Shown: positions 6,420 to 17,850, numbered from the stretch's first letter. The stretch is 17,850 nt of DNA from a virus (IMGVR_UViG_2654587568_000021), one strand, 5' to 3'. A program made the numbers and translations. The notes: a model not told the origin generated them from the letters alone.

Positions 6420-9176
6420 ATGCGAAACATTGATCTTATCCGTCAGGTTATCAGTGCGTCTGAAAACAACTGGCCTCATGTGCTGGGCTGCCTGAACATA
6501 AATGTCCCTGACTCTCCGCGCCGTCATGCTCCCTGCCCTGCATGTGGGGGCAAAGATCGATTCCGGTTCGATGACAACGGGCGCGGTAGCTTCATCTGTA
6601 ATCAGTGCGGCGCTGGTGATGGGCTGGATTTAATTAAACGCGTAAATAACTGCGACACAACAGAGGCGGCGCTTCTTGCCGCTGATGTTCTGGGTATTGA
6701 TTACCGGACAACGGAAACACCAGAAGCCACCAGCCAGAAACGGGAACAACTGGAAACCGAGCGCCAGCGACGCGAACAGGAGCGCCTGAAAAGGGCAGAG
6801 AAGGACGAACAACAAAGACGGGATACGTTTTCCCGTCAGTTTGATGACATGCGCAGAAAGGCTGTAAACGGCAAATCTGATTATCTGGTTGCGAAAGGGG
6901 TAGGTGATTTTACATTCCCCGTGTTGCCCGATGGATCTCTGTTGCTGGCGCTGGTGGATAAATCCGGCGCAGTCACAGCAGCACAGACTATTACCTCACA
7001 TGGTGAAAAAAGACTCCTGACAGGTTCAGCAAAGCGAGGGGCATATCACGCCATAAACGCACCAGAAACAACACAGAGCATCTTAATCGCAGAAGGGCTG
7101 GCAACGGCATTATCTGCCCATTTAATTCGTTCAGAAGCGCTGACAGTGGCGGCGATTGATGCCGGGAACCTGTTATATGTCGCCCAGGTACTGCGGGATA
7201 AATTTCCTTCAGCACAAATCATCATTGCTGCGGATAACGACCACAGCGAAGGAAGACAAAACACGGGGAGAATAGCAGCAGAAAAAGCAGCTTTATCTGT
7301 TTCTGGATGGGTGGCATTACCCCCGACAGATCACAAAGCAGACTGGAATGATTACCACCAAAAACACGGCATTAAATGCGCCACAGAAGCGTTCAATAAG
7401 TCAATGTACCAACCACAGGGTAATGGCGTGAAACAGGAGCCACAGACCATTGAGGGAAGCGATTTTAAGGTTATGGATACCGACCCACTGAAACCAAGAA
7501 TAGAAAGCCGCGAGGATGGTATTTATTGGGTATCTCCGAGAGCTGACAGCCAGAGTGGAGAAATCATCAATAACGAAAGCTGGTTATGTTCTCCTTTAAG
7601 CGTTATCGGTACTGGCAGAGACGATAAAGACCAGTATCTCATTCTTCGCTGGCTGTCGTTTGGTTCTGAAACGCCGACAACCGCTGCCATTCCACTGGCT
7701 GATATTGGTGAACGTGAAGGATGGCGCACACTTAAAGCTGGTGGGGTAAATGTCACGACCAAAAGCAGCCTCAGAGCAATACTGGCAGACTGGCTACAAC
7801 GCAGTGGCTCTCGTGAATTGTGGCGTGTTGCTCATGCCACTGGCTGGCAATGCGGAGCGTACATCATGTCTGATGGGGAAATCATCGGAACACCTGAAAA
7901 TCCTGTGCTGTTCAGCGGGAGAAGCTCAGCCGCAGCCGGATATACCGTCTCAGGGAGCGCGAAAAGCTGGCGTGATAACGTGGCGCGTCTGGCCTTTGGT
8001 AACTATTCAATGATGACCGGGATCGGCGCAGCACTGGCAGCGCCATTGATTGGGCTGGTGGGCGCTGACGGGTTCGGTATTCATTTCTATGAGCAGTCGA
8101 GCGCAGGTAAGACCACCACGGCAAACGTGGCGAGCAGCTTATACGGCAACCCTGATTTACTGCGGCTGACGTGGTACGGAACCGCGCTGGGGCTGGCAAA
8201 TGAAGCCGCCGCCCACAATGACGGACTAATGCCGCTTGATGAAGTTGGTCAGGGCGCTGATCCTGTCAGTGTTTCACAGTCTGCCTATGCGTTATTTAAC
8301 GGTGTAGGGAAACTGCAAGGCGCTAAAGATGGTGGAAACCGGGATCTAAAACGCTGGCGTACAGTGGCAATCAGCACCGGAGAAATGGATTTAGAAACAT
8401 TTATCGCTACTTCCGGGCGAAAAACCAAAGCCGGGCAACTGGTGCGACTGCTGAATATTCCGTTGAGTAAAGCAGTACGCTTTCACGATTACCAGAACGG
8501 AAAACAGCACGCAGACGCACTGAAAGACGCTTACCAGCATCACCACGGCGCAGCCGGGCGTGAGTGGATTAAATGGCTGGCAGACCACCAGCAACAGGCT
8601 ATTAAAACTGTTCGTGACTGCGAAAGCAGATGGAGAAGCCTGATCCCATCCGATTATGGTGAGCAGGTTCACCGTGTAGCCGCGCGATTTGCCATTCTGG
8701 AGGCCGCATTGCTGTTAGGCGAGGTTGTAACAGGCTGGGATGCTCAGACATGCCGTGATGCGATACAGCACAGCTATAACGCATGGTTGCGCGAGTTCGG
8801 CACAGGTAACAAAGAGCATCAGCAGATTATTGAACAAACGGAGGCATTTCTTAATGCCTATGGGCTTAGCCGTTTTGCACCATTTCCATACAGCCCGGCA
8901 GATTTGCCCATCAAAGATTTAGCCGGATACCGTCAGCGTGGAGAACATGACGAAAGCCCAATGATTTTCTACACATTCCCGGCCACATTTGAAAAGGAGA
9001 TCGCATGTGGTTTCAACGCAAAACAGTTTGCTGAAGTGTTGAAAAAAGCCGGGATGCTAACCCCACCAAACAGCGGTCGTGGATACCAAAGAAAATCACC
9101 ACGTATTCAGGGACGACAAATAAACGTTTATGTACTCAATTACCAGCCAGGAGATTATAACTCATCCGAAGAATGA
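6420..9176 (+). CDS. P4 alpha-like DNA primase-helicase, 918 aa: N-terminal zinc ribbon, Toprim domain, C-terminal P-loop NTPase
   Basis: CPACGG...CNQCG zinc-binding motif. Toprim signatures IAEG and DNDH. Walker A SSAGKTTT and Walker B-like LMPLDEVGQG. Confidence 0.9.
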   Translation: MRNIDLIRQVISASENNWPHVLGCLNINVPDSPRRHAPCPACGGKDRFRFDDNGRGSFICNQCGAGDGLDLIKRVNNCDTTEAALLAADVLGIDYRTTETPEATSQKREQLETERQRREQERLKRAEKDEQQRRDTFSRQFDDMRRKAVNGKSDYLVAKGVGDFTFPVLPDGSLLLALVDKSGAVTAAQTITSHGEKRLLTGSAKRGAYHAINAPETTQSILIAEGLATALSAHLIRSEALTVAAIDAGNLLYVAQVLRDKFPSAQIIIAADNDHSEGRQNTGRIAAEKAALSVSGWVALPPTDHKADWNDYHQKHGIKCATEAFNKSMYQPQGNGVKQEPQTIEGSDFKVMDTDPLKPRIESREDGIYWVSPRADSQSGEIINNESWLCSPLSVIGTGRDDKDQYLILRWLSFGSETPTTAAIPLADIGEREGWRTLKAGGVNVTTKSSLRAILADWLQRSGSRELWRVAHATGWQCGAYIMSDGEIIGTPENPVLFSGRSSAAAGYTVSGSAKSWRDNVARLAFGNYSMMTGIGAALAAPLIGLVGADGFGIHFYEQSSAGKTTTANVASSLYGNPDLLRLTWYGTALGLANEAAAHNDGLMPLDEVGQGADPVSVSQSAYALFNGVGKLQGAKDGGNRDLKRWRTVAISTGEMDLETFIATSGRKTKAGQLVRLLNIPLSKAVRFHDYQNGKQHADALKDAYQHHHGAAGREWIKWLADHQQQAIKTVRDCESRWRSLIPSDYGEQVHRVAARFAILEAALLLGEVVTGWDAQTCRDAIQHSYNAWLREFGTGNKEHQQIIEQTEAFLNAYGLSRFAPFPYSPADLPIKDLAGYRQRGEHDESPMIFYTFPATFEKEIACGFNAKQFAEVLKKAGMLTPPNSGRGYQRKSPRIQGRQINVYVLNYQPGDYNSSEE

Positions 9177-9201
9177 GCTTCTTCATGTGCGTAGAAAAGG
9201 T

Positions 9202-9313
9202 GTTGGTTCAGTTGGTTCAGTTGGTTAAATTTGTAAAGAGTGTTGTTTTATAAGGATTTTATTCTTTTTATTGAACCAACACCGAACCAACAACACGGTA
9301 TTTTGAACCAACA
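9202..9313. repeat. Iteron cluster, candidate replication origin: three tandem GTTGGTTCA repeats, an AT-rich spacer, then three inverted TGAACCAAC copies
   Basis: Direct copies at 9202-9210, 9211-9219 and 9220-9228 (third degenerate). Inverted copies at 9272-9280, 9283-9291 and 9305-9313. Begins 26 bp after the primase stop. Confidence 0.6.
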
Positions 9314-9633
9314 CAATGTGACTGAATTGATGCGCACAACACCTGGCTGGCATCAGAGAGTGTTTTACGAGACTTTCGTAAAATCCTGTGTACAAGGGCG
9401 TGACGTTTTTGAAAGTGAGCACTACGAAATTTTCGTAGTTCAGAAAACAGCCCCTGAGAAGTTGTTATGCCTGTTCAGCAAACCATCCGCATAGCTGATC
9501 GCGAATCAAATTACCAATGGAGCCAGAAGCAAGGGCAGAACTGAAAAGCGCCTGCCGTGAAGAGTAATGCGACACCATAAATATAGTTTTTAGAGTCCAT
9601 AAAAAACCTGTCAAAACCTGACACACAGAACGA

Positions 9634-9665
9634 TGCTACCAGCTACTGAGCGGTGGCATTTTTTT
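9634..9665 (+). terminator. Candidate rho-independent terminator closing the int-primase gene block
   Basis: UGCUACC / GGUGGCA stem with one G-U wobble and an 11-nt loop, followed by T7 at 9659-9665. Confidence 0.35.
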
Positions 9666-9721
9666 GTGCTATTTGTTTCATATTTTGCAATCACAATGAT
9701 GAATGTTGCGTTTTATGAAAC

Positions 9722-9745
9722 TATAATGACTGTTGTTTTATACAG
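9722..9745 (+). promoter_or_regulatory. Perfect -10 hexamer TATAAT (9722-9727) immediately followed by a LexA-box-like motif CTGT-N8-ACAG (9730-9745); candidate SOS-regulated promoter of the cargo operon
   Basis: Sequence gaCTGTtgttttatACAGtt compared with the LexA consensus TACTGTATATATATACAGTA. AT-rich N8 spacer. The box sits between the -10 and the RBS at 9751. The -35 is weak. Confidence 0.45.
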
Positions 9746-9760
9746 TTCTAAGGGGGCGTT

Positions 9761-9934
9761 ATGGCTATTTCAGTAAAGCCAGTATTGATAAGTGAGAAGC
9801 AAATGGAAGCGATAAAGAAAATTCAGGAGGAGCAGCGTAAAAAATCAGAGGTAGGAGTTGCGCCAACGATCCACGAAATTGCTCGGGGATTAATGGATAA
9901 GGCGCTGGCTTACACTTTAACTGGACGTGGGTAA
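9761..9934 (+). CDS. Small hypothetical protein, 57 aa, first gene of the cargo operon (below the 60-aa ORF-track cutoff)
   Basis: RBS AGGGGG at 9751-9756, ATG at 9761, TAA at 9932-9934; translated by hand as MAISVKPVLISEKQMEAIKKIQEEQRKKSEVGVAPTIHEIARGLMDKALAYTLTGRG. Confidence 0.5.
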   Translation: MAISVKPVLISEKQMEAIKKIQEEQRKKSEVGVAPTIHEIARGLMDKALAYTLTGRG

Positions 9935-9938
9935 ATCA

Positions 9939-11405
9939 ATGGCTACGTGGCAACAGGGTATTAATTCTGGTGGTTTTCTGGCTGGCATTGGTGCGCAAAA
10001 CGAGAATGCGCCAAAGGCAAGCGACATTAACGCAACGCTTGGTCTGATCCGCGAAAACAATGAACTGGCTCGCTCAGGTGCAAATAACGTTGCTCTGACA
10101 GGTCTTCGTGGTCTGGCTGGCGTTGCTGATATTTATAAGCAGCAGCAACAGCAGGAGCGTAAAGCGGCATTCCAGAAAGGTTATGCAGATGCTTATGCGT
10201 CCGGTGACAGGGAGCAGATGCGTAATCTTATTACAGCATTCCCAGAAGAGTTTGAGGAAGTCCGTAAAGGGATGAGTTATGTCGATGATGCTCAAAGGGA
10301 TGATTATGGCAATCTGGCGCTCAAAGCACAGGTAGCCTCATCGCTTGGTCAGGGCGCATTTGGCAGGTTCATGATGGATAATGAGCAGGAGATGCGTCGT
10401 TTAGGTATCCCTCCAGAAACTATTGCTGAAATGCAGGTTAATGACCCGCAGGGCTTCCAGCATTTCGCAGGTAATCTGGCGCTGTTTTCTCTCGGTCATG
10501 AGAAGTATTTCGATATCAAAGATCAAATGGAAGGTCGGGATATTGAGCGTGGCAAGTTGGCAGAGACAATCCGCAGCAATCAGGCTGGCGAAGCACTTCA
10601 GGCGAGAGGGCAGGATATTAGCCGAGCAAATGCGTTAACGTCAGCATATGCACCAACAGCAGCAATGCAGAATTACAATCAGTACGCGCAAATGTTAAAG
10701 GCGGATCCAGAGGGGGCGGCGGCATTTGCGGCAGCGGCTGGAATTAATACAAACGCCAAAAAATTAATGAGTGTTAGAGAAAACGATGATGGCACTGTCA
10801 CAAAATACTACACAGACGGAAGTGAAGAGCAGGGAAAACTAAACCAGCCAATATCTGGAGATGGGTTTCGTCCAATAGCTTTGCCAACAGCCCAAAAGAT
10901 CATGGAAAAGTCGCCAGAAGGGGCTAAAAAAGCTGCTGGATTTGCATACAGGGTTAGGGATGCTCTTGATTCAATAGATACACTGAAAGACCAGCTTAGC
11001 CCACAGCGAGTGGCGATCATTAATAATGCTTTGGGTAATGGGACGCTGGCTAACTTAACGCTCAGCCCAGCAGAGCAGCAATACGTTGTTAATGCTAATG
11101 ACGCAATAATGGCAATACTCCGTCAGGAAACAGGGGCATCTATCCTACCAGCTGAAATGTCCAAATATTATCAAATGTATTTCCCTCAGCCTGGTGATTC
11201 CACAAAAACCATTGATACCAAGCGCCGGAAGATGGAAAACCAGTTCAATTCGCTGAAAGCTGCTTCTGGTCGAACTTATGATGCTTTGCGGGTTATTTCA
11301 GCAGTTGACAGAGGAACTGCTTCTTCGTCGCAGACATTGCCGCAATCTGAGCAGGTATCACAGCCAGCAGCCAGCAGTAACTTTTCTTCACTATGGGGTG
11401 ATTAA
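9939..11405 (+). CDS. Large hypothetical protein, about 488 aa, Ala/Gln/Gly-rich; no family recognised. An alternative GTG start at 9927 gives the 492-aa ORF-track version
   Basis: Long intact ORF with an ATG 4 nt after the upstream stop. Stop overlaps the next start (TAATG). Confidence 0.8.
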   Translation: MATWQQGINSGGFLAGIGAQNENAPKASDINATLGLIRENNELARSGANNVALTGLRGLAGVADIYKQQQQQERKAAFQKGYADAYASGDREQMRNLITAFPEEFEEVRKGMSYVDDAQRDDYGNLALKAQVASSLGQGAFGRFMMDNEQEMRRLGIPPETIAEMQVNDPQGFQHFAGNLALFSLGHEKYFDIKDQMEGRDIERGKLAETIRSNQAGEALQARGQDISRANALTSAYAPTAAMQNYNQYAQMLKADPEGAAAFAAAAGINTNAKKLMSVRENDDGTVTKYYTDGSEEQGKLNQPISGDGFRPIALPTAQKIMEKSPEGAKKAAGFAYRVRDALDSIDTLKDQLSPQRVAIINNALGNGTLANLTLSPAEQQYVVNANDAIMAILRQETGASILPAEMSKYYQMYFPQPGDSTKTIDTKRRKMENQFNSLKAASGRTYDALRVISAVDRGTASSSQTLPQSEQVSQPAASSNFSSLWGD

Positions 11406-13510
11406 TGGCTAAAGCATGGAAAGATGTTATCGCCTCTCCACAGTATCAGGCGTTAGCACCAGAACAAAAAGCGCAGGCTCAGGAGCAATACTTCAATGAA
11501 GTCGTGGCCCCGCAAGCCGGAGAAAGTGTAGAGCAGGCTAAGCAGGCTTTTTATGCTGCCTATCCACTACCATCAACGAATGAAATAGACCGATCCCAAT
11601 CAGCAACTCAAAATATTCAACATACATCATCTGATAATTCTCTTGCGTCAGGGTATGCAAAGTTAGCTACTCAGCAAAGAGAGGGGCTTGAGCGTTCAGC
11701 AGAACAGGGAGCCAGTCTTGGGGCTGCGATGCGCGATGCTATAACAGGCGAAAGCCGAATGACTCCAGAGATGGAGAGACTGCAAAATGTCGCCTCTGCC
11801 CCAGAATTGAACTCACTAAGCATGGATGCCCTAAAGGCTGGATGGTCTCAACTTTTCGGCTCTGACGCGTCTCAGGAAAAGATTCTTCAGGGAATGGGGG
11901 CGACATTAAGGCAGGATGAGAAGGGGAATACTATCGTTTCTCTGCCATCAGGTGATTATGCCCTGAACAAGCCGGGTTTATCACCGCAAGACCTGACCTC
12001 GTTTCTTGCTAATGCGTTGGCGTTTACACCAGCGGGCAGGGCTGGAACGGTGCTTGGTGCCATAGGAAAATCAGCAGCTACAGATTTAGCACTACAGGGA
12101 GCCACCAGCCTTGCTGGTGGAGAAGATATTGATCCGTTACAAACGGTAATTTCTGCTGGCATTGGTGGTATTGGTAAGGGGCTGGAAAATACAGCGAGTG
12201 CGGTTTCGAGGGCTGTTCGTGGTGATATGTCGCCTGAAGCAAAGGCTGCTGTCGACTTTGCATCGGAAAGAAATCTGCCGTTAATGACCAGTGACATGCT
12301 GAAAGATAAAACCTTTATGCAGAGTCAGGCTCAGACATTAGGCGAAAGAGTTCCTTTTTTTGGAACCGGTAAGAATCGGCTGAATCAACAACAAGCACGA
12401 GAAAATTTAGTCAGAACATTTAGCGATGGTCTGGGTGGCATTTCTGATAAACAGCTTTATGAATCTGCGACTAAAGGGCAACAAAAATTCATTGAGGCAG
12501 CAGGAAAGCGATATAACCGCATAATTGACGCTATGGGGGATACCCCTGTCGATCTCTCAAACACGGTAAAAGCTATCGACAATCAGATTGCCGTGTTAAG
12601 CCGCCCGGGCAAATCTCAGGATAGAGCCGCGGTAAAAGTCTTGCAGCAATTTAAAGACGATATCACCAGCGGACCAAATGACCTGCGTCTGGCGAGGGAA
12701 AACAGAACCGATCTTCGAAAGCGATTTATGGCGTCATCTGACACTGTTGATAAAGATACGCTCCAGAAAGCCAGCGATATTATCTACAAGGCATATACGG
12801 CGGATATGAAAAAAGCCGTAGCCAAAAATCTTGGAGCAGACGAAGCCATTAATATGGCAAGGGTTGATCGCTCATGGTCTAAATTCAATGACATGATGGG
12901 AAGAACGCGCGTTCAAAAGGCAATAGCCAGCGGCAAGGCCACGCCTGAGGATGTAACAAAACTCGTTTTTAGCCAAAGCCCATCAGAACGTTCTCAGCTT
13001 TACAGGCTTCTGGATGACAATGGTAGGCAAAACGCACGAGCAGCCATAGTTCAGAATGCTGTAGATAAGGCGACTGATCCGTCTGGAAATATCAGTGTTG
13101 AGAAGTTTATTAATGCGTTACACCGGAACAGGAAGCAATCAGCAACTTTCTTTAAAGGCGTACATGGAAAGGAACTGGACGGCGTTATTAAATACCTCAA
13201 CGATACAAGACACGCGGCAAAAGCGAACGTTCAAAACTTAAATGGTCAGCAGCTTTATGGATTGTTAGTTGGTGGTGGCATCATAAACGCAGCAGTATTA
13301 GCGGGGATGCTAAAAACGGCTGCGTTTGTTGTTCCTGCTGCTGGTGCCGTAGGCGGAGCAGCGAAGGCATACGAAAGCCCTGTTATACGAAATGCCTTGT
13401 TACGTCTGGCAAATACGCCAAAAGGTAGCACAGCATATGACAGAGCGATCAGTACGGTCACACAATCGCTCACCAGAGTCGCACAGGCATCACAAAAAGA
13501 AGCTCAATAA
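11405..13510 (+). CDS. Large hypothetical protein, 701 aa, with a C-terminal Gly/Ala-rich hydrophobic segment (LYGLLVGGGIINAAVLAGMLKTAAFVVPAAGAVGGAA); function unknown
   Basis: Long intact ORF coupled to the upstream gene and followed by a terminator hairpin. No enzymatic motif recognised. Confidence 0.85.
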   Translation: MAKAWKDVIASPQYQALAPEQKAQAQEQYFNEVVAPQAGESVEQAKQAFYAAYPLPSTNEIDRSQSATQNIQHTSSDNSLASGYAKLATQQREGLERSAEQGASLGAAMRDAITGESRMTPEMERLQNVASAPELNSLSMDALKAGWSQLFGSDASQEKILQGMGATLRQDEKGNTIVSLPSGDYALNKPGLSPQDLTSFLANALAFTPAGRAGTVLGAIGKSAATDLALQGATSLAGGEDIDPLQTVISAGIGGIGKGLENTASAVSRAVRGDMSPEAKAAVDFASERNLPLMTSDMLKDKTFMQSQAQTLGERVPFFGTGKNRLNQQQARENLVRTFSDGLGGISDKQLYESATKGQQKFIEAAGKRYNRIIDAMGDTPVDLSNTVKAIDNQIAVLSRPGKSQDRAAVKVLQQFKDDITSGPNDLRLARENRTDLRKRFMASSDTVDKDTLQKASDIIYKAYTADMKKAVAKNLGADEAINMARVDRSWSKFNDMMGRTRVQKAIASGKATPEDVTKLVFSQSPSERSQLYRLLDDNGRQNARAAIVQNAVDKATDPSGNISVEKFINALHRNRKQSATFFKGVHGKELDGVIKYLNDTRHAAKANVQNLNGQQLYGLLVGGGIINAAVLAGMLKTAAFVVPAAGAVGGAAKAYESPVIRNALLRLANTPKGSTAYDRAISTVTQSLTRVAQASQKEAQ

Positions 13511-13514
13511 CTGG

Positions 13515-13537
13515 TTAGCCATGGATGGCTAATTTTT
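13515..13537 (+). terminator. Rho-independent terminator of the cargo operon
   Basis: Stem TTAGCCA / TGGCTAA with loop TGGA, then TTTTT. The stop codon of the convergent - strand gene (13529-13531) lies inside the 3' arm. Confidence 0.5.
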
Positions 13538-13948
13538 GTTCTTTGCTCTCATCCATAGGTAAAGAAGGGAAAGAACAAGGCAAAAAACAGAGAATAGATA
13601 ACCTACCTCATATGGTGCGCCAAAAAAATTAGCTATTGATACGGGCAAAAAAGCTGAGGCGATCAAAATTGAAAGGCAAAAAATAAGCCCAGTAATATAG
13701 TTTATTAAATTCTTAAATGAGAAACGTTTTGCTTGATTTACGGTCTTAACGAACGATCGCTTAACGACGGATAAAAGCAAATAGATGGCGACAGTTGCTA
13801 ATGCCCCTTTCCACCAGTCTGGATATAGTTTTGCGACAATCAGACCAAGGAAAACCATGATGACAGCCTGAGCATTCACACCAACCCTCCCTTTAGCTTT
13901 GTTTAGAATGGCAATCATCATATATCCAAGACATGGCATTTGGTACAT
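13529..13948 (-). CDS. Small integral membrane protein, 139 aa, about 4 predicted TM helices, AT-rich, convergent with the 701-aa gene
   Basis: Four hydrophobic stretches of 15-25 residues read by eye. One 60-nt sample (13621-13680) is about 37% GC, below the roughly 50% flank. No clear SD, so the start codon is uncertain. Confidence 0.6.
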   Translation of the reverse strand: MYQMPCLGYMMIAILNKAKGRVGVNAQAVIMVFLGLIVAKLYPDWWKGALATVAIYLLLSVVKRSFVKTVNQAKRFSFKNLINYITGLIFCLSILIASAFLPVSIANFFGAPYEVGYLFSVFCLVLSLLYLWMRAKNKN

Positions 13949-13994
13949 AGCTTGGGTCGGGATTTCAAATCCGATCCCCGTTGATGGGGCCGTT

Positions 13995-14376
13995 ACAGTA
14001 CGCGCATATCCGCTTTATGTGAAACAGGAAGATTTTTCTGATATCACTGCCACAGCAAAACACCAATTTCGTGACCAGTACGCGCGCGAGGGGTATCAGT
14101 TGCAAAATTTTTTGCAACTGCGTCCGACCAGTACGCACACGATGGCGGGGGATACCATGAAACTGTTCTCTACACGAGACAGAGTGGTGGTGATGTGTTG
14201 ATTATCGGCGTATATGCGCACAGGACGCGCTATGACGATGTTTTATGCGGGTACACCAATCACATGTATCTGATGTGATAAATCGCGTTACATGACCTCT
14301 CTGTTGTGCTGGTGGTTATCACGACGTTCTGAATCTGGCCTTTGCCTGGTATTTTGCGACAAGTACGCGCGCGTAG
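13995..14376. repeat. Four direct copies of a (G)ACCAGTACGCRCRCG-like motif plus an 11-bp inverted repeat with 2-bp spacer (14097-14120) in a non-coding region
   Basis: Copies at 13995-14006, 14073-14090, 14126-14140 and 14358-14376. Palindrome CAGTTGCAAAA-tt-TTTTGCAACTG. Confidence 0.4.
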
Positions 14377-14921
14377 CATCGAAATAATCGGATGGCGTAT
14401 GCTGCTGGTAATATGAAGACCGATAGCATTAACCGTAAGGAGAAAGACTTCTCGATAACGGCAAGATCGCGGCAAGGGGGCTGAATTGCGAGGCGAGATT
14501 AAGCAACTGTCTTGAACGTAAAAATCATGGAGCAACATGATGGTACGATTCATTCCATTCTTCGTTCTTTCTGAGTATTGCGTTCAGGCTTAGTCAAAAT
14601 TAGTGTTGCGAGCGGACCTATTAGTAATTGTTAGTGCGATGCGCCTGTTATGGATTGTTATGGTTGTGGCAGGCCTGATTAATATCCAGTATGACCACCA
14701 GCTATGAGAGGCCACCTCAGTGGTTCGCAGTTGCAGGTTTGCACTCAGGTTCGCAGGGTTTTGGCTACTTTCACGTGCGAACCTGCAGAATTGCAAAGGA
14801 CAACTAAGTCCTCTGGCCAACTCCCGGTTTATGAGCGACACAGTCCGCCTGGCGCATCGTTTTCGTCGAGTGCGCCCATCAGCTTGTCCATGGACTATCC
14901 ACCACTCGATATTAAAGCTAA

Positions 14922-15107
14922 TCATTGGTTGCCAGCCCGCGAATCAAGTTTGTTCTGGATCCAAGCTTCAACCTCCTCAAGCGACCATCTAGCTGATCTA
15001 CCAATTTTAACTGGCTGTGGAAACGTGCCCGTCTTAACCCATGAGTAGATTGCCGTTTTCTTGAAGCCCGTTCTGAGCATAACTTCGCTTAATTTGATAA
15101 GGCGCAT
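14922..15107 (-). CDS. alpA: Second AlpA-family regulator, 61 aa, on the - strand
   Basis: MRLIKLSEVMLRTGFKKTAIYSWVKTGTFPQPVKIGRSARWSLEEVEAWI is a typical AlpA HTH as I recall it. AGGAG RBS on the - strand upstream of the ATG. Confidence 0.85.
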   Translation of the reverse strand: MRLIKLSEVMLRTGFKKTAIYSWVKTGTFPQPVKIGRSARWSLEEVEAWIQNKLDSRAGNQ

Positions 15108-15155
15108 AGAGGCTCCTCTGCTTTAGATTAAGCATAGTGACAATCTGGCTTTGGC

Positions 15156-15190
15156 GGTATCCAAAAGCGAGGTATCCATGTTGGTATCCA
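15156..15190. promoter_or_regulatory. Three direct GGTATCCA repeats in the divergent intergenic region between alpA(-) and the 63-aa gene(+)
   Basis: Copies at 15156-15163, 15171-15178 and 15183-15190. A perfect TATAAT at 15328-15333 precedes the + strand small gene. Confidence 0.3.
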
Positions 15191-15358
15191 CCAAAACGCT
15201 GTTTACCAAAAAAGTTACCACCGGAACAGGACATTTTGAGCTGTAACTTAACACATAGCATATGGAGTTCACGCATAGACTTCACGCACAACGGCTCCGG
15301 CCAGTGAAGAATCACCCTGGCTGGCAATATAATGCCGATCACCATCAGAGGGGGATCC

Positions 15359-15550
15359 ATGACACCACGAGAAATCGAGCTGCTGACCATTGCCAAGCTG
15401 GAGCATGACGGCCACCAGCTCAGCCCGGCAGAACTGCGGGAATTAAGGCGCCAGCTGGCAGAGGGCCCTGTAATAGCCAGGCGGTACCGCGAAATGATGA
15501 CCAGCCCCGCATATCGCTGGAGCAAACCAGCGCCGCTCCGTGCGCGGTGA
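15359..15550 (+). CDS. Small hypothetical protein, 63 aa (MTPREIELLTIAKLEHDGHQLSPAELRELRRQLAEG...)
   Basis: GAGGGGG RBS then ATG at 15359. An alternative upstream ATG at 15332 has no RBS. Confidence 0.45.
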   Translation: MTPREIELLTIAKLEHDGHQLSPAELRELRRQLAEGPVIARRYREMMTSPAYRWSKPAPLRAR

Positions 15551-15624
15551 GCAGCACCTAACCAGCACTAGACAAGCCCTGTGCTGGTGGATGTCCCTCA
15601 TAATTAGCGGTTTTTAAACAGCGT

Positions 15625-15745
15625 GTTGGTTCACGGCCTCTTTTTGTTGGTTCAAAAATGGGGTGTGTTGGTTCACTTTTTGCGAATAATTCTTTTAAAA
15701 ACAATACTCTTTACAAATTGAACCAACTGAACCAACTGAACCAAC
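15625..15745. repeat. Second iteron cluster, the reverse-complement copy of 9202-9313: three spaced GTTGGTTCA, an AT-rich spacer, then three tandem TGAACCAAC
   Basis: Direct copies at 15625-15633, 15646-15654 and 15667-15675. Tandem inverted copies at 15719-15727, 15728-15736 and 15737-15745. The reverse complement of 15711-15750 is near-identical to 9193-9232. Confidence 0.6.
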
Positions 15746-15781
15746 ACCTTTTTGCTTATCTATATAGTCTGAGAGGCAGAA

Positions 15782-16069
15782 ATGATAAGGGACAGGAAAG
15801 CTGAAGATCTGGAGTCAAAAGGGCTATACCGGAGAGCTGCCGCACGATGGGCAGAAATCATGATGCTGGCAGATGGCGATAAAGAACGTGAACATGCAGC
15901 AAACAGACGCTCTGAATGTATCCGTAAGGCGGCACGCCAACCAGCAACTACAGACAGATTCGGAGATTTAAGACAGGCAGTTAAGCGAACTCATTCGGCT
16001 CTTGGTATGGATGAGGAAGCGAGAGGGTACTTCAGGCGTTATCGCGATAAAGATTGCCAGAGACAGTAA
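15782..16069 (+). CDS. PerC-family transcriptional regulator-like protein, 95 aa
   Basis: GAGAGG RBS. The segment LESKGLYRRAAARWAEIM resembles the conserved PerC/Pch motif as I recall it. Confidence 0.6.
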   Translation: MIRDRKAEDLESKGLYRRAAARWAEIMMLADGDKEREHAANRRSECIRKAARQPATTDRFGDLRQAVKRTHSALGMDEEARGYFRRYRDKDCQRQ

Positions 16070-16206
16070 TGCTCTCTCTGTTTTGGCAAATTACCCCTCA
16101 CTTTGAAGGGATCGGAGCTATAAAAATGGTGTTATCCGGCTTCCTCAAATTGAGGTTTCCGAAAATATCAGCGGGTTAGCGATTAATCTGGCGAGTAATT
16201 AAACTG

Positions 16207-16386
16207 CGAAAATTTCGTAGGGGGTTACGAAAATTTCGTAGGTCTACTCATGGTTTAGGCTTACTTTCCCGACATCCCCCAATGGGTGGGGGCGAAATAA
16301 TCAATGGGTTAGGCTTACCTCCCCCATTTCCTGCATTGCAGGTTTTCGAAAGAATCAATGGGTTAGGTCATCGTGCAAATTTGCAC
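16207..16386. repeat. Non-coding array of phased direct repeats and palindromes: CGAAAATTTCGTAGG x2, TCAATGGGTTAGGCTTAC-like x3 at 53-54 bp spacing, GTGCAAATTTGCAC palindrome
   Basis: Copies at 16207-16221 and 16228-16242; 16248-16264, 16301-16318 and 16354-16370. Palindromes at 16330-16342 and 16373-16386. Confidence 0.45.
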
Positions 16387-17003
16387 TCTGACAGCCAACG
16401 CAATTTCTCGTTGGCGGAAATATCAGGTATTTACTGAACGAACGGTCTACCCGCCTGTTCAACTACCAGTTGTACATGGCTGCTTTATGTGCAAATGGTG
16501 GTGAGAGAAAATTGTTTGGGGGTACTTTTGGGGGTATCTTCAAAGATGTAATTGGAAAATATCTTTATATATCAATGTATTTTTATTGTTTGTTTTGTTC
16601 CTATTATCGCACCACTTAAATCAATAAGTTACACATCATTAATACCTTCCTTATTTTTTGATTGGGACAGATTTGGGACCGATGGGTTCAGGATCGAATC
16701 TATTTACCGTGCGTGTTCGGTAAGGTGATTAGGTGCGAGGTGAGCATATCGACGAACCATTTCGAGAGTTTCCCATCCGCTCATTTTTAAGTGCAAGCAG
16801 GGAAACACCGGACTAAACCTATCAGCTGTTCGAAAATGGCAAGCGGATTAATATGCCATGGCGGCTTTGAGCCGCACGCATGGGGTGTGGCAAGCCTGAT
16901 GGATGTTGCTGTGCTTGTGGTGGCGTGTTTGCTGGTCTGGTTGTTGGTTAATCGCGAAAATCATTATGCCTGAGGAATACCACAGGACGTTCAGGTTTTG
17001 CAT

Positions 17004-17235: not shown

Positions 17236-17850
17236 ATGAATATATTTGAACAAACTCCACCAAACCGCAGACGTTATGGTCTTGCTGCATTCATTGGGCT
17301 GATTGCTGGCGTTGTTTCCGCATTTGTGAAGTGGGGGGCTGAAGTTCCATTGCCGCCACGTAGCCCGGTGGATATGTTTAATGCAGCGTGTGGCCCGGAA
17401 TCATTAATCAGGGCTGCTGGGCAAATTGATTGCTCCCGTAATTTTCTCAATCCTCCGTATATTTTTCTTCGAGACTGGTTGGGGCTGACAGATCCCAATG
17501 CGGCTGTTTATACCTTTGCCGGGCATGTCTTTAACTGGGTTGGTGTTACGCACATTATCTTTTCGATAGTGTTTGCTGTCGGTTATTGTGTGGTCGCTGA
17601 AGTATTTCCAAAAATTAAACTCTGGCAGGGCTTACTGGCAGGTGCTTTAGCCCAACTTTTTGTTCATATGATTTCATTCCCTCTCATGGGACTGACGCCA
17701 CCTCTGTTTGATCTCCCGTGGTATGAGAATGTCTCTGAAATTTTTGGACATTTAGTCTGGTTCTGGTCTATTGAAATTATTCGCAGAGATTTACGAAACA
17801 GAATTACCCATGAGCCAGACCCTGAGATCCCTTTAGGCTCAAATAGATAA
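17236..17850 (+). CDS. yagU: YagU-like inner membrane protein (DUF1440 family), 204 aa, complete
   Basis: Full ORF with stop at the window end. Multiple hydrophobic helices. Sequence matches my recollection of E. coli YagU. This is chromosomal core, not island. Confidence 0.8.

Follow-up and report, generated by a model that had tools for sequence, protein, structure and literature searches.

A four-helix membrane protein gene at the sieA position of EcCIMP1-like phage satellites and P22-like prophages, a candidate superinfection-exclusion factor

The window, that is the whole stretch of DNA that was analyzed, is 17,850 nucleotides long, and the feature of interest in it is a minus-strand open reading frame of 139 codons at 13529-13948. 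As the preliminary description had it, this ORF is convergent with a plus-strand gene for a 701-aa protein at 11405-13510. The product of the larger gene is a homolog of gp16, the DNA ejection (injection) protein of P22, and matches the PHROG family phrog_770, 'DNA transfer protein', at 2.4e-163. A 492-aa homolog of the P22 ejection protein gp20 is encoded before it on the same strand, at 9927-11405 (Pfam Inj_translocase, 1.3e-83; PHROG phrog_917). The small protein encoded by the minus-strand ORF is here called 4TM-A. The 701-aa protein is 60-95% identical to the corresponding neighbors of all members of the 4TM-A family and 30% identical to the product of P22 gene 16 by tblastn, and the gp16 homologs next to family members carry the Pfam domain Phage_P22_gp16. 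On sequence grounds the 701-aa protein belongs to the P22 gp16 type of virion ejection proteins and is not a toxin of the producing cell. The GC content of the ORF is 0.382, against 0.469 for the window, which places it in the 4th percentile of equal-sized sliding windows and bears out the earlier remark that the gene is lower in GC than its surroundings, yet the lowest-GC stretch of the window lies elsewhere.

The ORF is over-extended at its 5' end by 69 nt (23 codons). The preliminary description had placed that end at 13948, but the true start is almost certainly the GTG at 13879, giving a coding sequence of 116 aa at 13529-13879 (minus strand) with a TAG stop at 13531-13529, and not the ATG at 13948, which would give 139 aa. 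We favor GTG 13879 because the ribosome-binding site, the aligned starts of homologs, the starts of distant homologs, and the end of prophage homology agree. The sequence GGGAGG(G) at 13891-13885 sits 6 nt 5' of this codon. An aligned MNxQ is the start in all 7 homologs from other loci, and 6 of the 7 have a comparable ribosome-binding site at the aligned start, the site in L015 being weak. The 4 remotest family members, which are 37-38% identical, start exactly at the position aligned with GTG 13879, and similarity to the P22-like prophage copy stops just upstream of the 4TM-A ribosome-binding site. The 23 extra codons are probably untranslated, which would leave 13880-13948 (minus strand) as a leader. 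RefSeq starts for 4TM-A are inconsistent, at 129, 130, 109, and 116 aa, and the discrepancy concerns 13879-13948 in the window, 18530-18919 in L001, and 4013-4342 in L004; the RefSeq starts in L001 (129 aa) and L004 (109 aa) were rejected, the comparison favoring the 116-aa GTG start. Weak promoter-like elements are found in the leader, namely TTGGAT at 13929-13924 and, after 17 nt, CTAAAC at 13906-13901, together with TATGAT at 13922-13917. A scan for a sigma-70 consensus promoter upstream of 4TM-A in the island returned none that was convincing.

The stop codon of the 701-aa gene is at 13508-13510 and the TAG of 4TM-A at 13531-13529, leaving 18 nt between the two; the close spacing reported earlier stands, while the exact figure of 19 bp does not. 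A hairpin at 13513-13534 (plus strand), common to both convergent genes, is the sole terminator-like site that the terminator scan detected in 13300-14700, with 9 pairs, a loop of 4, a tail of TTTGTTCTTT, and a core, GCCATGGATGGC, at 13518-13529. Folded as plus-strand RNA it has an energy of -10.8 kcal/mol (z = -3.25), with a U-run after it; folded as minus-strand RNA it has -7.7 kcal/mol and lacks the U-run. The TAG of 4TM-A lies inside the 3' arm, so the stop codon does sit in the terminator stem of the 701-aa gene, as the preliminary description claimed. The C-terminus of 4TM-A reads ...LLYLWMRAKNKN, and its KNKN codons encode the T-run of the terminator, as the complement of the U-run.

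A 12-nt motif of this hairpin, GCCNTCCNTGGC, is found directly after the gene-16 homolog in 13 of 16 comparison loci, P22 and MP1 included (13518-13529 in the window, 3323-3334 in L002, 13443-13454 in L003). It is present regardless of the type of gp16 and of the gene that follows, and it occurs as a single copy per locus except for a second copy in L007. The P22 copy folds weakly. Recombination breakpoints at query positions 529-531 coincide with the hairpin, which is the left edge of an exchangeable segment, and the motif may be a module junction as well as a terminator.

Kyte-Doolittle analysis gives 4 hydrophobic segments in 4TM-A, and two AlphaFold2 runs on the 116 aa gave 4 helices, at 3-18, 22-50, 55-86, and 91-115 in the first (pLDDT 57) and at 3-18, 23-50, 55-85, and 90-115 in the second (pLDDT 68.7), models of low to medium confidence. 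This agrees with the 4 transmembrane helices proposed earlier. Lys and Arg residues cluster in the loop between TM2 and TM3 (3-6 residues) and at the C-terminus (1-3) in 8 of 8 family members, and the remaining two loops carry 0-2 in all 8. Since this pattern obeys the positive-inside rule in every member, it fits the prediction that 4TM-A is a four-pass inner-membrane protein with both N- and C-termini inside. The best-conserved part of the family comprises the N-terminus, TM1, and the first predicted periplasmic loop (..LIVAKLYP..), and the cytoplasmic loop is the least conserved. Pairwise dN/dS values of 0.13-0.39, where dS is unsaturated, indicate purifying selection on 4TM-A.

Searches of PHROGs, Pfam, NCBIfam, and PADLOC gave no meaningful match to 4TM-A, and none to the colicin-immunity, GtrA, SMR, or holin families at E <= 1 (Pfam) or E <= 0.1 (NCBIfam). 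Foldseek comparison of the 4TM-A models with viral models and the PDB returned nothing below E = 1, the matches to holins all having E > 1. No gtrB/gtrC, colicin, or lysis genes are found near 4TM-A. The local Pfam copy lacks the SieA model PF26849 and is uninformative for membership in that family. P22 SieA itself has no match in the copies of Pfam, NCBIfam, and PADLOC that were used, nor HS1 SieA in those of NCBIfam and PADLOC. Because both of these SieA proteins go unmatched, the database negatives for 4TM-A say little.

The window is identified as an EcCIMP1-like phage-inducible chromosomal island (PICI) at tRNA-Thr, with proA on one side and yagU on the other. Its att core, TCCTATTATC, is at 16599-16608 and yagU begins at 17236; in L001, an island 97-99% identical to that of the window adjoins tRNA-Thr and proA. 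Genes for an integrase, an AntA/B antirepressor, Ash, a TOPRIM/DUF927 primase, the ejection proteins, the AlpA-type regulator alpA_1, and PerC make up the island, and no capsid, tail, or lysis genes were found in it. EcCIMP1, the type element for these islands, is a PICI of E. coli MP1, and the P22-like phage Kapi1 mobilizes it (Pick, Stadel and Raivio 2025, PMC11773190). Helper-induced excision and transfer have been demonstrated for EcCIMP1 with Kapi1 only, and EcCIMP1 adds to superinfection immunity against the P22-like helper by a mechanism that is unexplained, no known defense system having been detected in it (PMC11773190). Defense finders draw a blank in EcCIMP1 because the libraries searched hold no SieA models. 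The window resembles EcCIMP1 in its tRNA-Thr site between proA and yagU, its att core, and a common gene set. The two differ at the gp16 position, where EcCIMP1 has a gene for 908 aa with a lytic transglycosylase domain and the window one for 701 aa; in the slot beside it, which in EcCIMP1 holds a co-directional gene for a 232-aa lipoprotein and in the window 4TM-A; and in the homologs of gp14 (DUF2824) and gp7, which EcCIMP1 has and the window lacks. Since EcCIMP1 is without 4TM-A, its published phenotype is not assignable to 4TM-A.

EcCIMP1-like PICIs thus encode P22 ejection-protein homologs of their own. These are gp20 and gp16 in the window (9927-13510), and L001 (13853-18221) and the MP1 island L003 (13481-18649) additionally carry gp14 (DUF2824) and gp7. 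In the EcCIMP1 paper, the genes of ejection type are regarded only as possible packaging or morphogenesis genes (PMC11773190). Comparison of 9176-10119 in the window with 13823-15120 in L001 shows that the window is about 1.1 kb shorter and without the gp14 and gp7 homologs, and, set against L001 and MP1, the first 64 or so codons of its gp20 gene are a different allele. In the Edwardsiella island L008, too, gp20 and gp16 are the only ones. A second group of EcCIMP1-like islands (L005, L006, L019) is integrated near dinD/yicG and not at tRNA-Thr, with the PerC gene on the other side, and its leader and slot are organized as at tRNA-Thr.

The preliminary description had credited the small gene with an upstream region of its own that carries repeats. 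The repeats are there, with CAGTACGCGC present in five copies at 13996-14370 and, at 14097-14120, CAGTTGCAAAA-TT-TTTTGCAACTG, a perfect palindrome of 11 nt, but they do not belong to 4TM-A. They are retained in MP1, where 4TM-A is replaced, and are missing from prophage contexts, and we assign them to the conserved backbone of the island. About 1 kb of this backbone, at 13950-14920, has no annotated gene in RefSeq relatives. MP1 retains the stretch, at about 97% identity over the first 320 or so nt aligned, and the ORFs at 14260-14553 and 14590-14925 are not open there. The region may have a regulatory role or be a site of the pac or ori type; over 13300-16700, Rfam gave no match. Farther along, three direct repeats of GTGTTGGTTCAC at 15623-15676, spaced exactly 21 nt and lying about 100 nt upstream of a perC-family gene (15782-16069), resemble iterons or operators.

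HMMER, run exhaustively against 1.84 billion representatives, found 7 clusters of the 4TM-A family, and a word-indexed search for relatives returned proteins of Enterobacterales only. At least 80% of the 4TM-A gene region is carried by about 227 of 5,426 complete E. coli genomes. Among 50,697 phage records there was no match to the DNA (megablast) or to the 116-aa protein (tblastn), and a pattern-based scan of one genome per species gave no confirmed locus. Contexts were obtained by exact-protein look-ups. In all 8 of them, PICIs and full P22-like prophages, the gene is convergent with a gp16-type gene and lies 17-23 nt after it. They include a complete P22-like prophage of Yersinia (L007; coat, gp4, gp10, gp7, gp20, gp16, the 4TM gene, tailspike), a P22-like prophage of E. 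coli (L004; gp7, gp20, gp16, the 4TM gene, Arc, Ant, tailspike), a PICI-like island of Edwardsiella (L008; primase, SSB, gp20, gp16), and metagenomic contigs (L009, L011, L013, L015) in which the family gene follows a gp16-type gene. In both L004 and L007 the 4TM gene stands between homologs of P22 genes 16 and 9 and is convergent with the former. The small protein diverges faster across the family (37-38% identity) than the neighboring gp16 (61-70%).

In the Yersinia prophage, a co-directional gene for a 108-aa signal-peptide protein (7627-7953, plus strand) precedes the 4TM gene, and the second copy of the hairpin motif, at 7953-7964, separates the two, so that this prophage has two envelope-protein genes, and the motif bounds both of them. 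The family was seen apart from a gp16-type gene only in obvious deletion remnants. In enterohemorrhagic E. coli (EHEC) O111:H8 and its relatives (L018, 6010-6399, minus strand), the integrase-to-gp16 side of the hairpin is deleted and the flank is now ykgL; these remnants keep 4TM-A (intact, at 99.7% identity), alpA_1, and perC.

The P22 genome has a convergent sieA after gene 16, and the slot of 4TM-A is this sieA position. The SieA types A, B, and C of P22-like phages were described by Leavitt et al. 2024 (PMC10883804). Among the E. coli islands, homology to the window breaks at the hairpin and after the GTGA of the start codon. All 4 convergent PICI alleles diverge exactly after a common ribosome-binding site, spacer, and GTG; the conserved hairpin is the end point of 3 of them and is missing from L006; and the leader is nearly unchanged among island alleles bearing different coding sequences. 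Besides the 116-aa 4TM-A of the window, the slot is occupied by 4TM-B, a diverged four-helix relative that is 27% identical (L005), by a signal-peptide (secreted) protein of 122 aa (L006, L021), by a SieA-family protein of 204 aa with the motif NRYPGEAR (L019, 4031-4645; L020, 730-1344; both minus strand), and, in EcCIMP1, by the 232-aa lipoprotein with the lipobox LAGC, whose gene (L003, 12632-13330, minus strand) is co-directional with that at the gp16 position. This lipoprotein gene replaces the whole leader-plus-gene unit after the hairpin. Its product resembles the surface-exclusion lipoprotein TraT (E 0.09) and DUF4136 (E 0.06) only weakly in Pfam, and may be the basis of the unexplained superinfection immunity of EcCIMP1. 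In Escherichia phage N7 (L016, 5402-5722, minus strand), which has a gp16 of the same type as the window at 68% identity, the occupant is a convergent gene for a 106-aa protein with a single N-terminal TM helix. All of these alternative occupants are envelope proteins.

The 204-aa protein is identified as a bona fide member of the SieA family. The slot gene of strain CX07 (204 aa) matches the SieA type A profile with an hhalign probability of 94.5% (E 8e-8), and the protein matches the type B SieA of HS1 by BLASTP at 2e-9, a SieA that excludes P22-like phages experimentally (PMC10883804). The last 510 nt of the gp16 gene beside this allele are 100% identical to those in the window. In the 2024 SieA paper, sieA was reported only within P22-like prophages (PMC10883804); the SieA-family gene found here resides in EcCIMP1-like islands and not in prophages, and accounts for about one sixth of a sample of 60 records. 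This census drew on 60 of the 596 matching E. coli records, sampled in even steps, with one record checked per two-piece class. It comprises 4TM-A in the island backbone (13 records), the signal-peptide protein (about 13), the SieA-like protein (10), 4TM-B (8), the EcCIMP1 type (6), 4TM-A in a prophage context (5), island remnants (3), and partial matches to the query (2).

The leader that precedes 4TM-A in the E. coli P22-like prophage is GGTATCCTGCGCAAAACTAAGGAGGTTGGTGTG. This L004-type leader is identical to the P22 sieA leader at 31 of 33 positions, and the leader of the islands is a recognizable relative. Such near-identity indicates that in this prophage the 4TM-A coding sequence replaces that of sieA, from the start codon to the hairpin. 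A P22 segment made up of sieA, the 85 bp before it, and the 22 bp after it confers exclusion by itself (PMC10883804).

We lean, with modest confidence, toward the reading that 4TM-A is a non-homologous functional analog of SieA that would block DNA delivery by P22-like phages. This reading is favored because the gene takes the sieA position, exchanges allelically with sieA, has a leader in common with it, and alternates with occupants of envelope type, and also because 4TM-A is under constraint and EcCIMP1 adds to superinfection immunity. 4TM-A would be expressed from a resident PICI or P22-like prophage in the lysogenic or quiescent state and would sit in the inner membrane. Its role would be that of a superinfection-exclusion factor, keeping out the DNA of P22-like virions that arrive later, and its probable target would be the periplasm-to-cytoplasm conduit of ejected gp20 and gp16 at the inner membrane. 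SieA has been proposed to act at the gp20/gp16 conduit step, escape mutations fall in the C-terminal regions of gp16 and gp20, and the ejection proteins of HK620 partly resist SieA (PMC10883804). The preliminary description had offered immunity or superinfection exclusion as the function, and the sieA slot, the allelic exchange, and the sieA leader lend good comparative support to the exclusion half of that suggestion.

Against the reading stand the negative homology and motif comparisons with SieA, the presence in EcCIMP1 of a lipoprotein gene in place of 4TM-A, the failure of the scans to find a convincing sigma-70 promoter in the island, and the lack of a match among the 50,697 phage records. 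Nor does position alone fix the function, because P22-like phages have genes with other roles, too, between genes 16 and 9. It is conceivable, if somewhat unlikely, that 4TM-A has nothing to do with the entry of phage DNA and is a membrane 'moron' of lysogenic conversion, sitting in a cargo hot spot that by chance adjoins gene 16 and serving, for example, in bacteriocin or colicin immunity, in envelope stress, or in transport. A polymorphic cargo site with at least 5 unrelated occupants is consistent with this, as are the lack of a match to any functionally characterized family in Pfam, PHROGs, NCBIfam, and PADLOC and the blank fold searches. Against it, a true member of the SieA family is among the alternative occupants, all of which are envelope proteins, the family leaves the side of a gp16-type gene only in obvious deletion remnants, and searches at E <= 1 turned up no domain of the colicin-immunity, GtrA, or SMR kind.

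A quite improbable alternative makes 4TM-A one half of a satellite entry/anti-entry module, in which it would exclude helper-type virions while the gp20 and gp16 variants of the island, built into particles, would be insensitive and so favor satellite transfer. Here the gp20 and gp16 genes of the island do adjoin 4TM-A, the small protein diverges faster than gp16, and the location of SieA-escape mutations in the C-terminal regions of gp16 and gp20 and the partial resistance of HK620 (PMC10883804) would suit such an arrangement. The argument is purely inferential, however, and the same gene is found in ordinary P22-like prophages, the linkage of adjacent genes is expected from descent alone, and the slot allele is not fixed per gp16 allele. 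Co-variation of the small protein with the type of gp16 was considered as proof of interaction and rejected, both because one gp16 allele can stand beside different slot alleles and because adjacent genes are inherited together.

The other half of the earlier suggestion, that 4TM-A confers immunity to the adjacent 701-aa protein, is not supported and is more doubtful still. As an immunity protein or chaperone for this gp16-type protein in the producing cell, 4TM-A would counter membrane damage during particle production. A small multi-TM gene that is convergent with, and directly after, the gene for a membrane-active protein mirrors the layout of pore-forming colicin operons, and the 4TM family is always linked to one gp16 type. 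However, the 701-aa protein is of the virion ejection type, 4TM-A is transcribed against the late operon and hence not co-expressed with gp16, and the same gp16 allele, with a 100% identical 3' end, also stands beside SieA-like or secreted-protein alleles. In addition, 4TM-A is intact where the gp16 gene is a pseudogene or deleted, as in the remnants without a gp16-type gene, and P22 grows without sieA, which is present in 22 of 66 P22-like phages (PMC10883804). That 4TM-A is a non-functional or chance ORF is highly improbable, for although it has no database family and no strong promoter, its dN/dS is 0.13-0.39, the ribosome-binding site and start codon are kept in 7 of 8 homologs, the four-helix hydropathy and charge pattern persists in 8 of 8 down to 37% identity, and about 227 of 5,426 complete E. 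coli genomes carry it.

Returning to 4TM-A as an analog of SieA, a broader proposition can be framed, which taken as a whole we consider unlikely. The segment from the gene-16 hairpin to the ribosome-binding site and GTG would be an exchangeable site for anti-entry cassettes that is common to P22-like prophages and satellites, with the 4TM family as one of several unrelated and undescribed classes of exclusion protein that replace SieA, paired in the satellites with their own ejection proteins to bias entry into the cell.

A membrane protein at the sieA locus is of a known kind; judged by sequence comparison, what is added here is a family that is undescribed, is not homologous to SieA, and occurs in satellites as well as prophages. 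Superinfection exclusion at the step of DNA entry is poorly understood, and the standard libraries for finding defense systems have no model for exclusion of the SieA type. The locus offers a concrete positional route to finding DNA-entry exclusion proteins and points to several further candidates, the EcCIMP1 lipoprotein included. It also presents a natural allele swap, in which several unrelated envelope proteins, a true SieA among them, occupy the same expression context in otherwise near-identical islands. Satellites of P22-like phages would, on this evidence, carry functions of the sieA type, and the genes of the slot are candidates for the unexplained superinfection immunity of EcCIMP1.

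Two other kinds of membrane protein invite comparison with 4TM-A. The immunity proteins of pore-forming colicins are small, multi-pass proteins of the inner membrane whose genes are convergent with, and directly downstream of, the gene for a large membrane-inserting protein, and they protect the cell from colicin arriving from outside. 4TM-A has no sequence or domain similarity to them, and its large neighbor is, in contrast, a virion ejection protein and no secreted toxin. T4 Imm and other phage membrane proteins have been proposed to block genome entry of related phages. Imm and 4TM-A are both small membrane proteins, but they are unrelated in sequence, phage group, and gene context.

The closest comparison is with P22 SieA. 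Homology between the two was considered and rejected on BLASTP, profile-profile comparison, a missing motif, and shorter length. BLASTP of 4TM-A against P22 SieA gave E 0.95, and hhalign of the 4TM-A family gave probabilities of 2.2% against the SieA type A profile and 0.14% against HS1 type B; the slot gene of CX07, at 94.5%, served as the positive control. The conserved C-terminal cytoplasmic motif of SieA, FxRYPxEAxxFNK (PMC10883804), is missing from every member of the 4TM-A family. 4TM-A has 116 aa, whereas SieA proteins have 162-212, and conservation in 4TM-A peaks at the N-terminus, TM1, and first periplasmic loop, whereas the conserved motif of SieA is in its cytoplasmic tail. Beyond sequence the likeness is extensive. 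4TM-A is predicted to be a small multi-pass membrane protein as SieA is, with 4 predicted helices in 4TM-A, 3 in SieA type A, and 4 in types B and C. Both genes take the same slot in the same orientation, convergent just after gene 16; behind gene 16 the hairpin is the same in both cases, and their leaders, ribosome-binding sites, and GTG codons are homologous. Finally, 4TM-A, like SieA, is borne by P22-like prophages of Enterobacterales, and in the island backbone it alternates with a gene of the SieA family itself.
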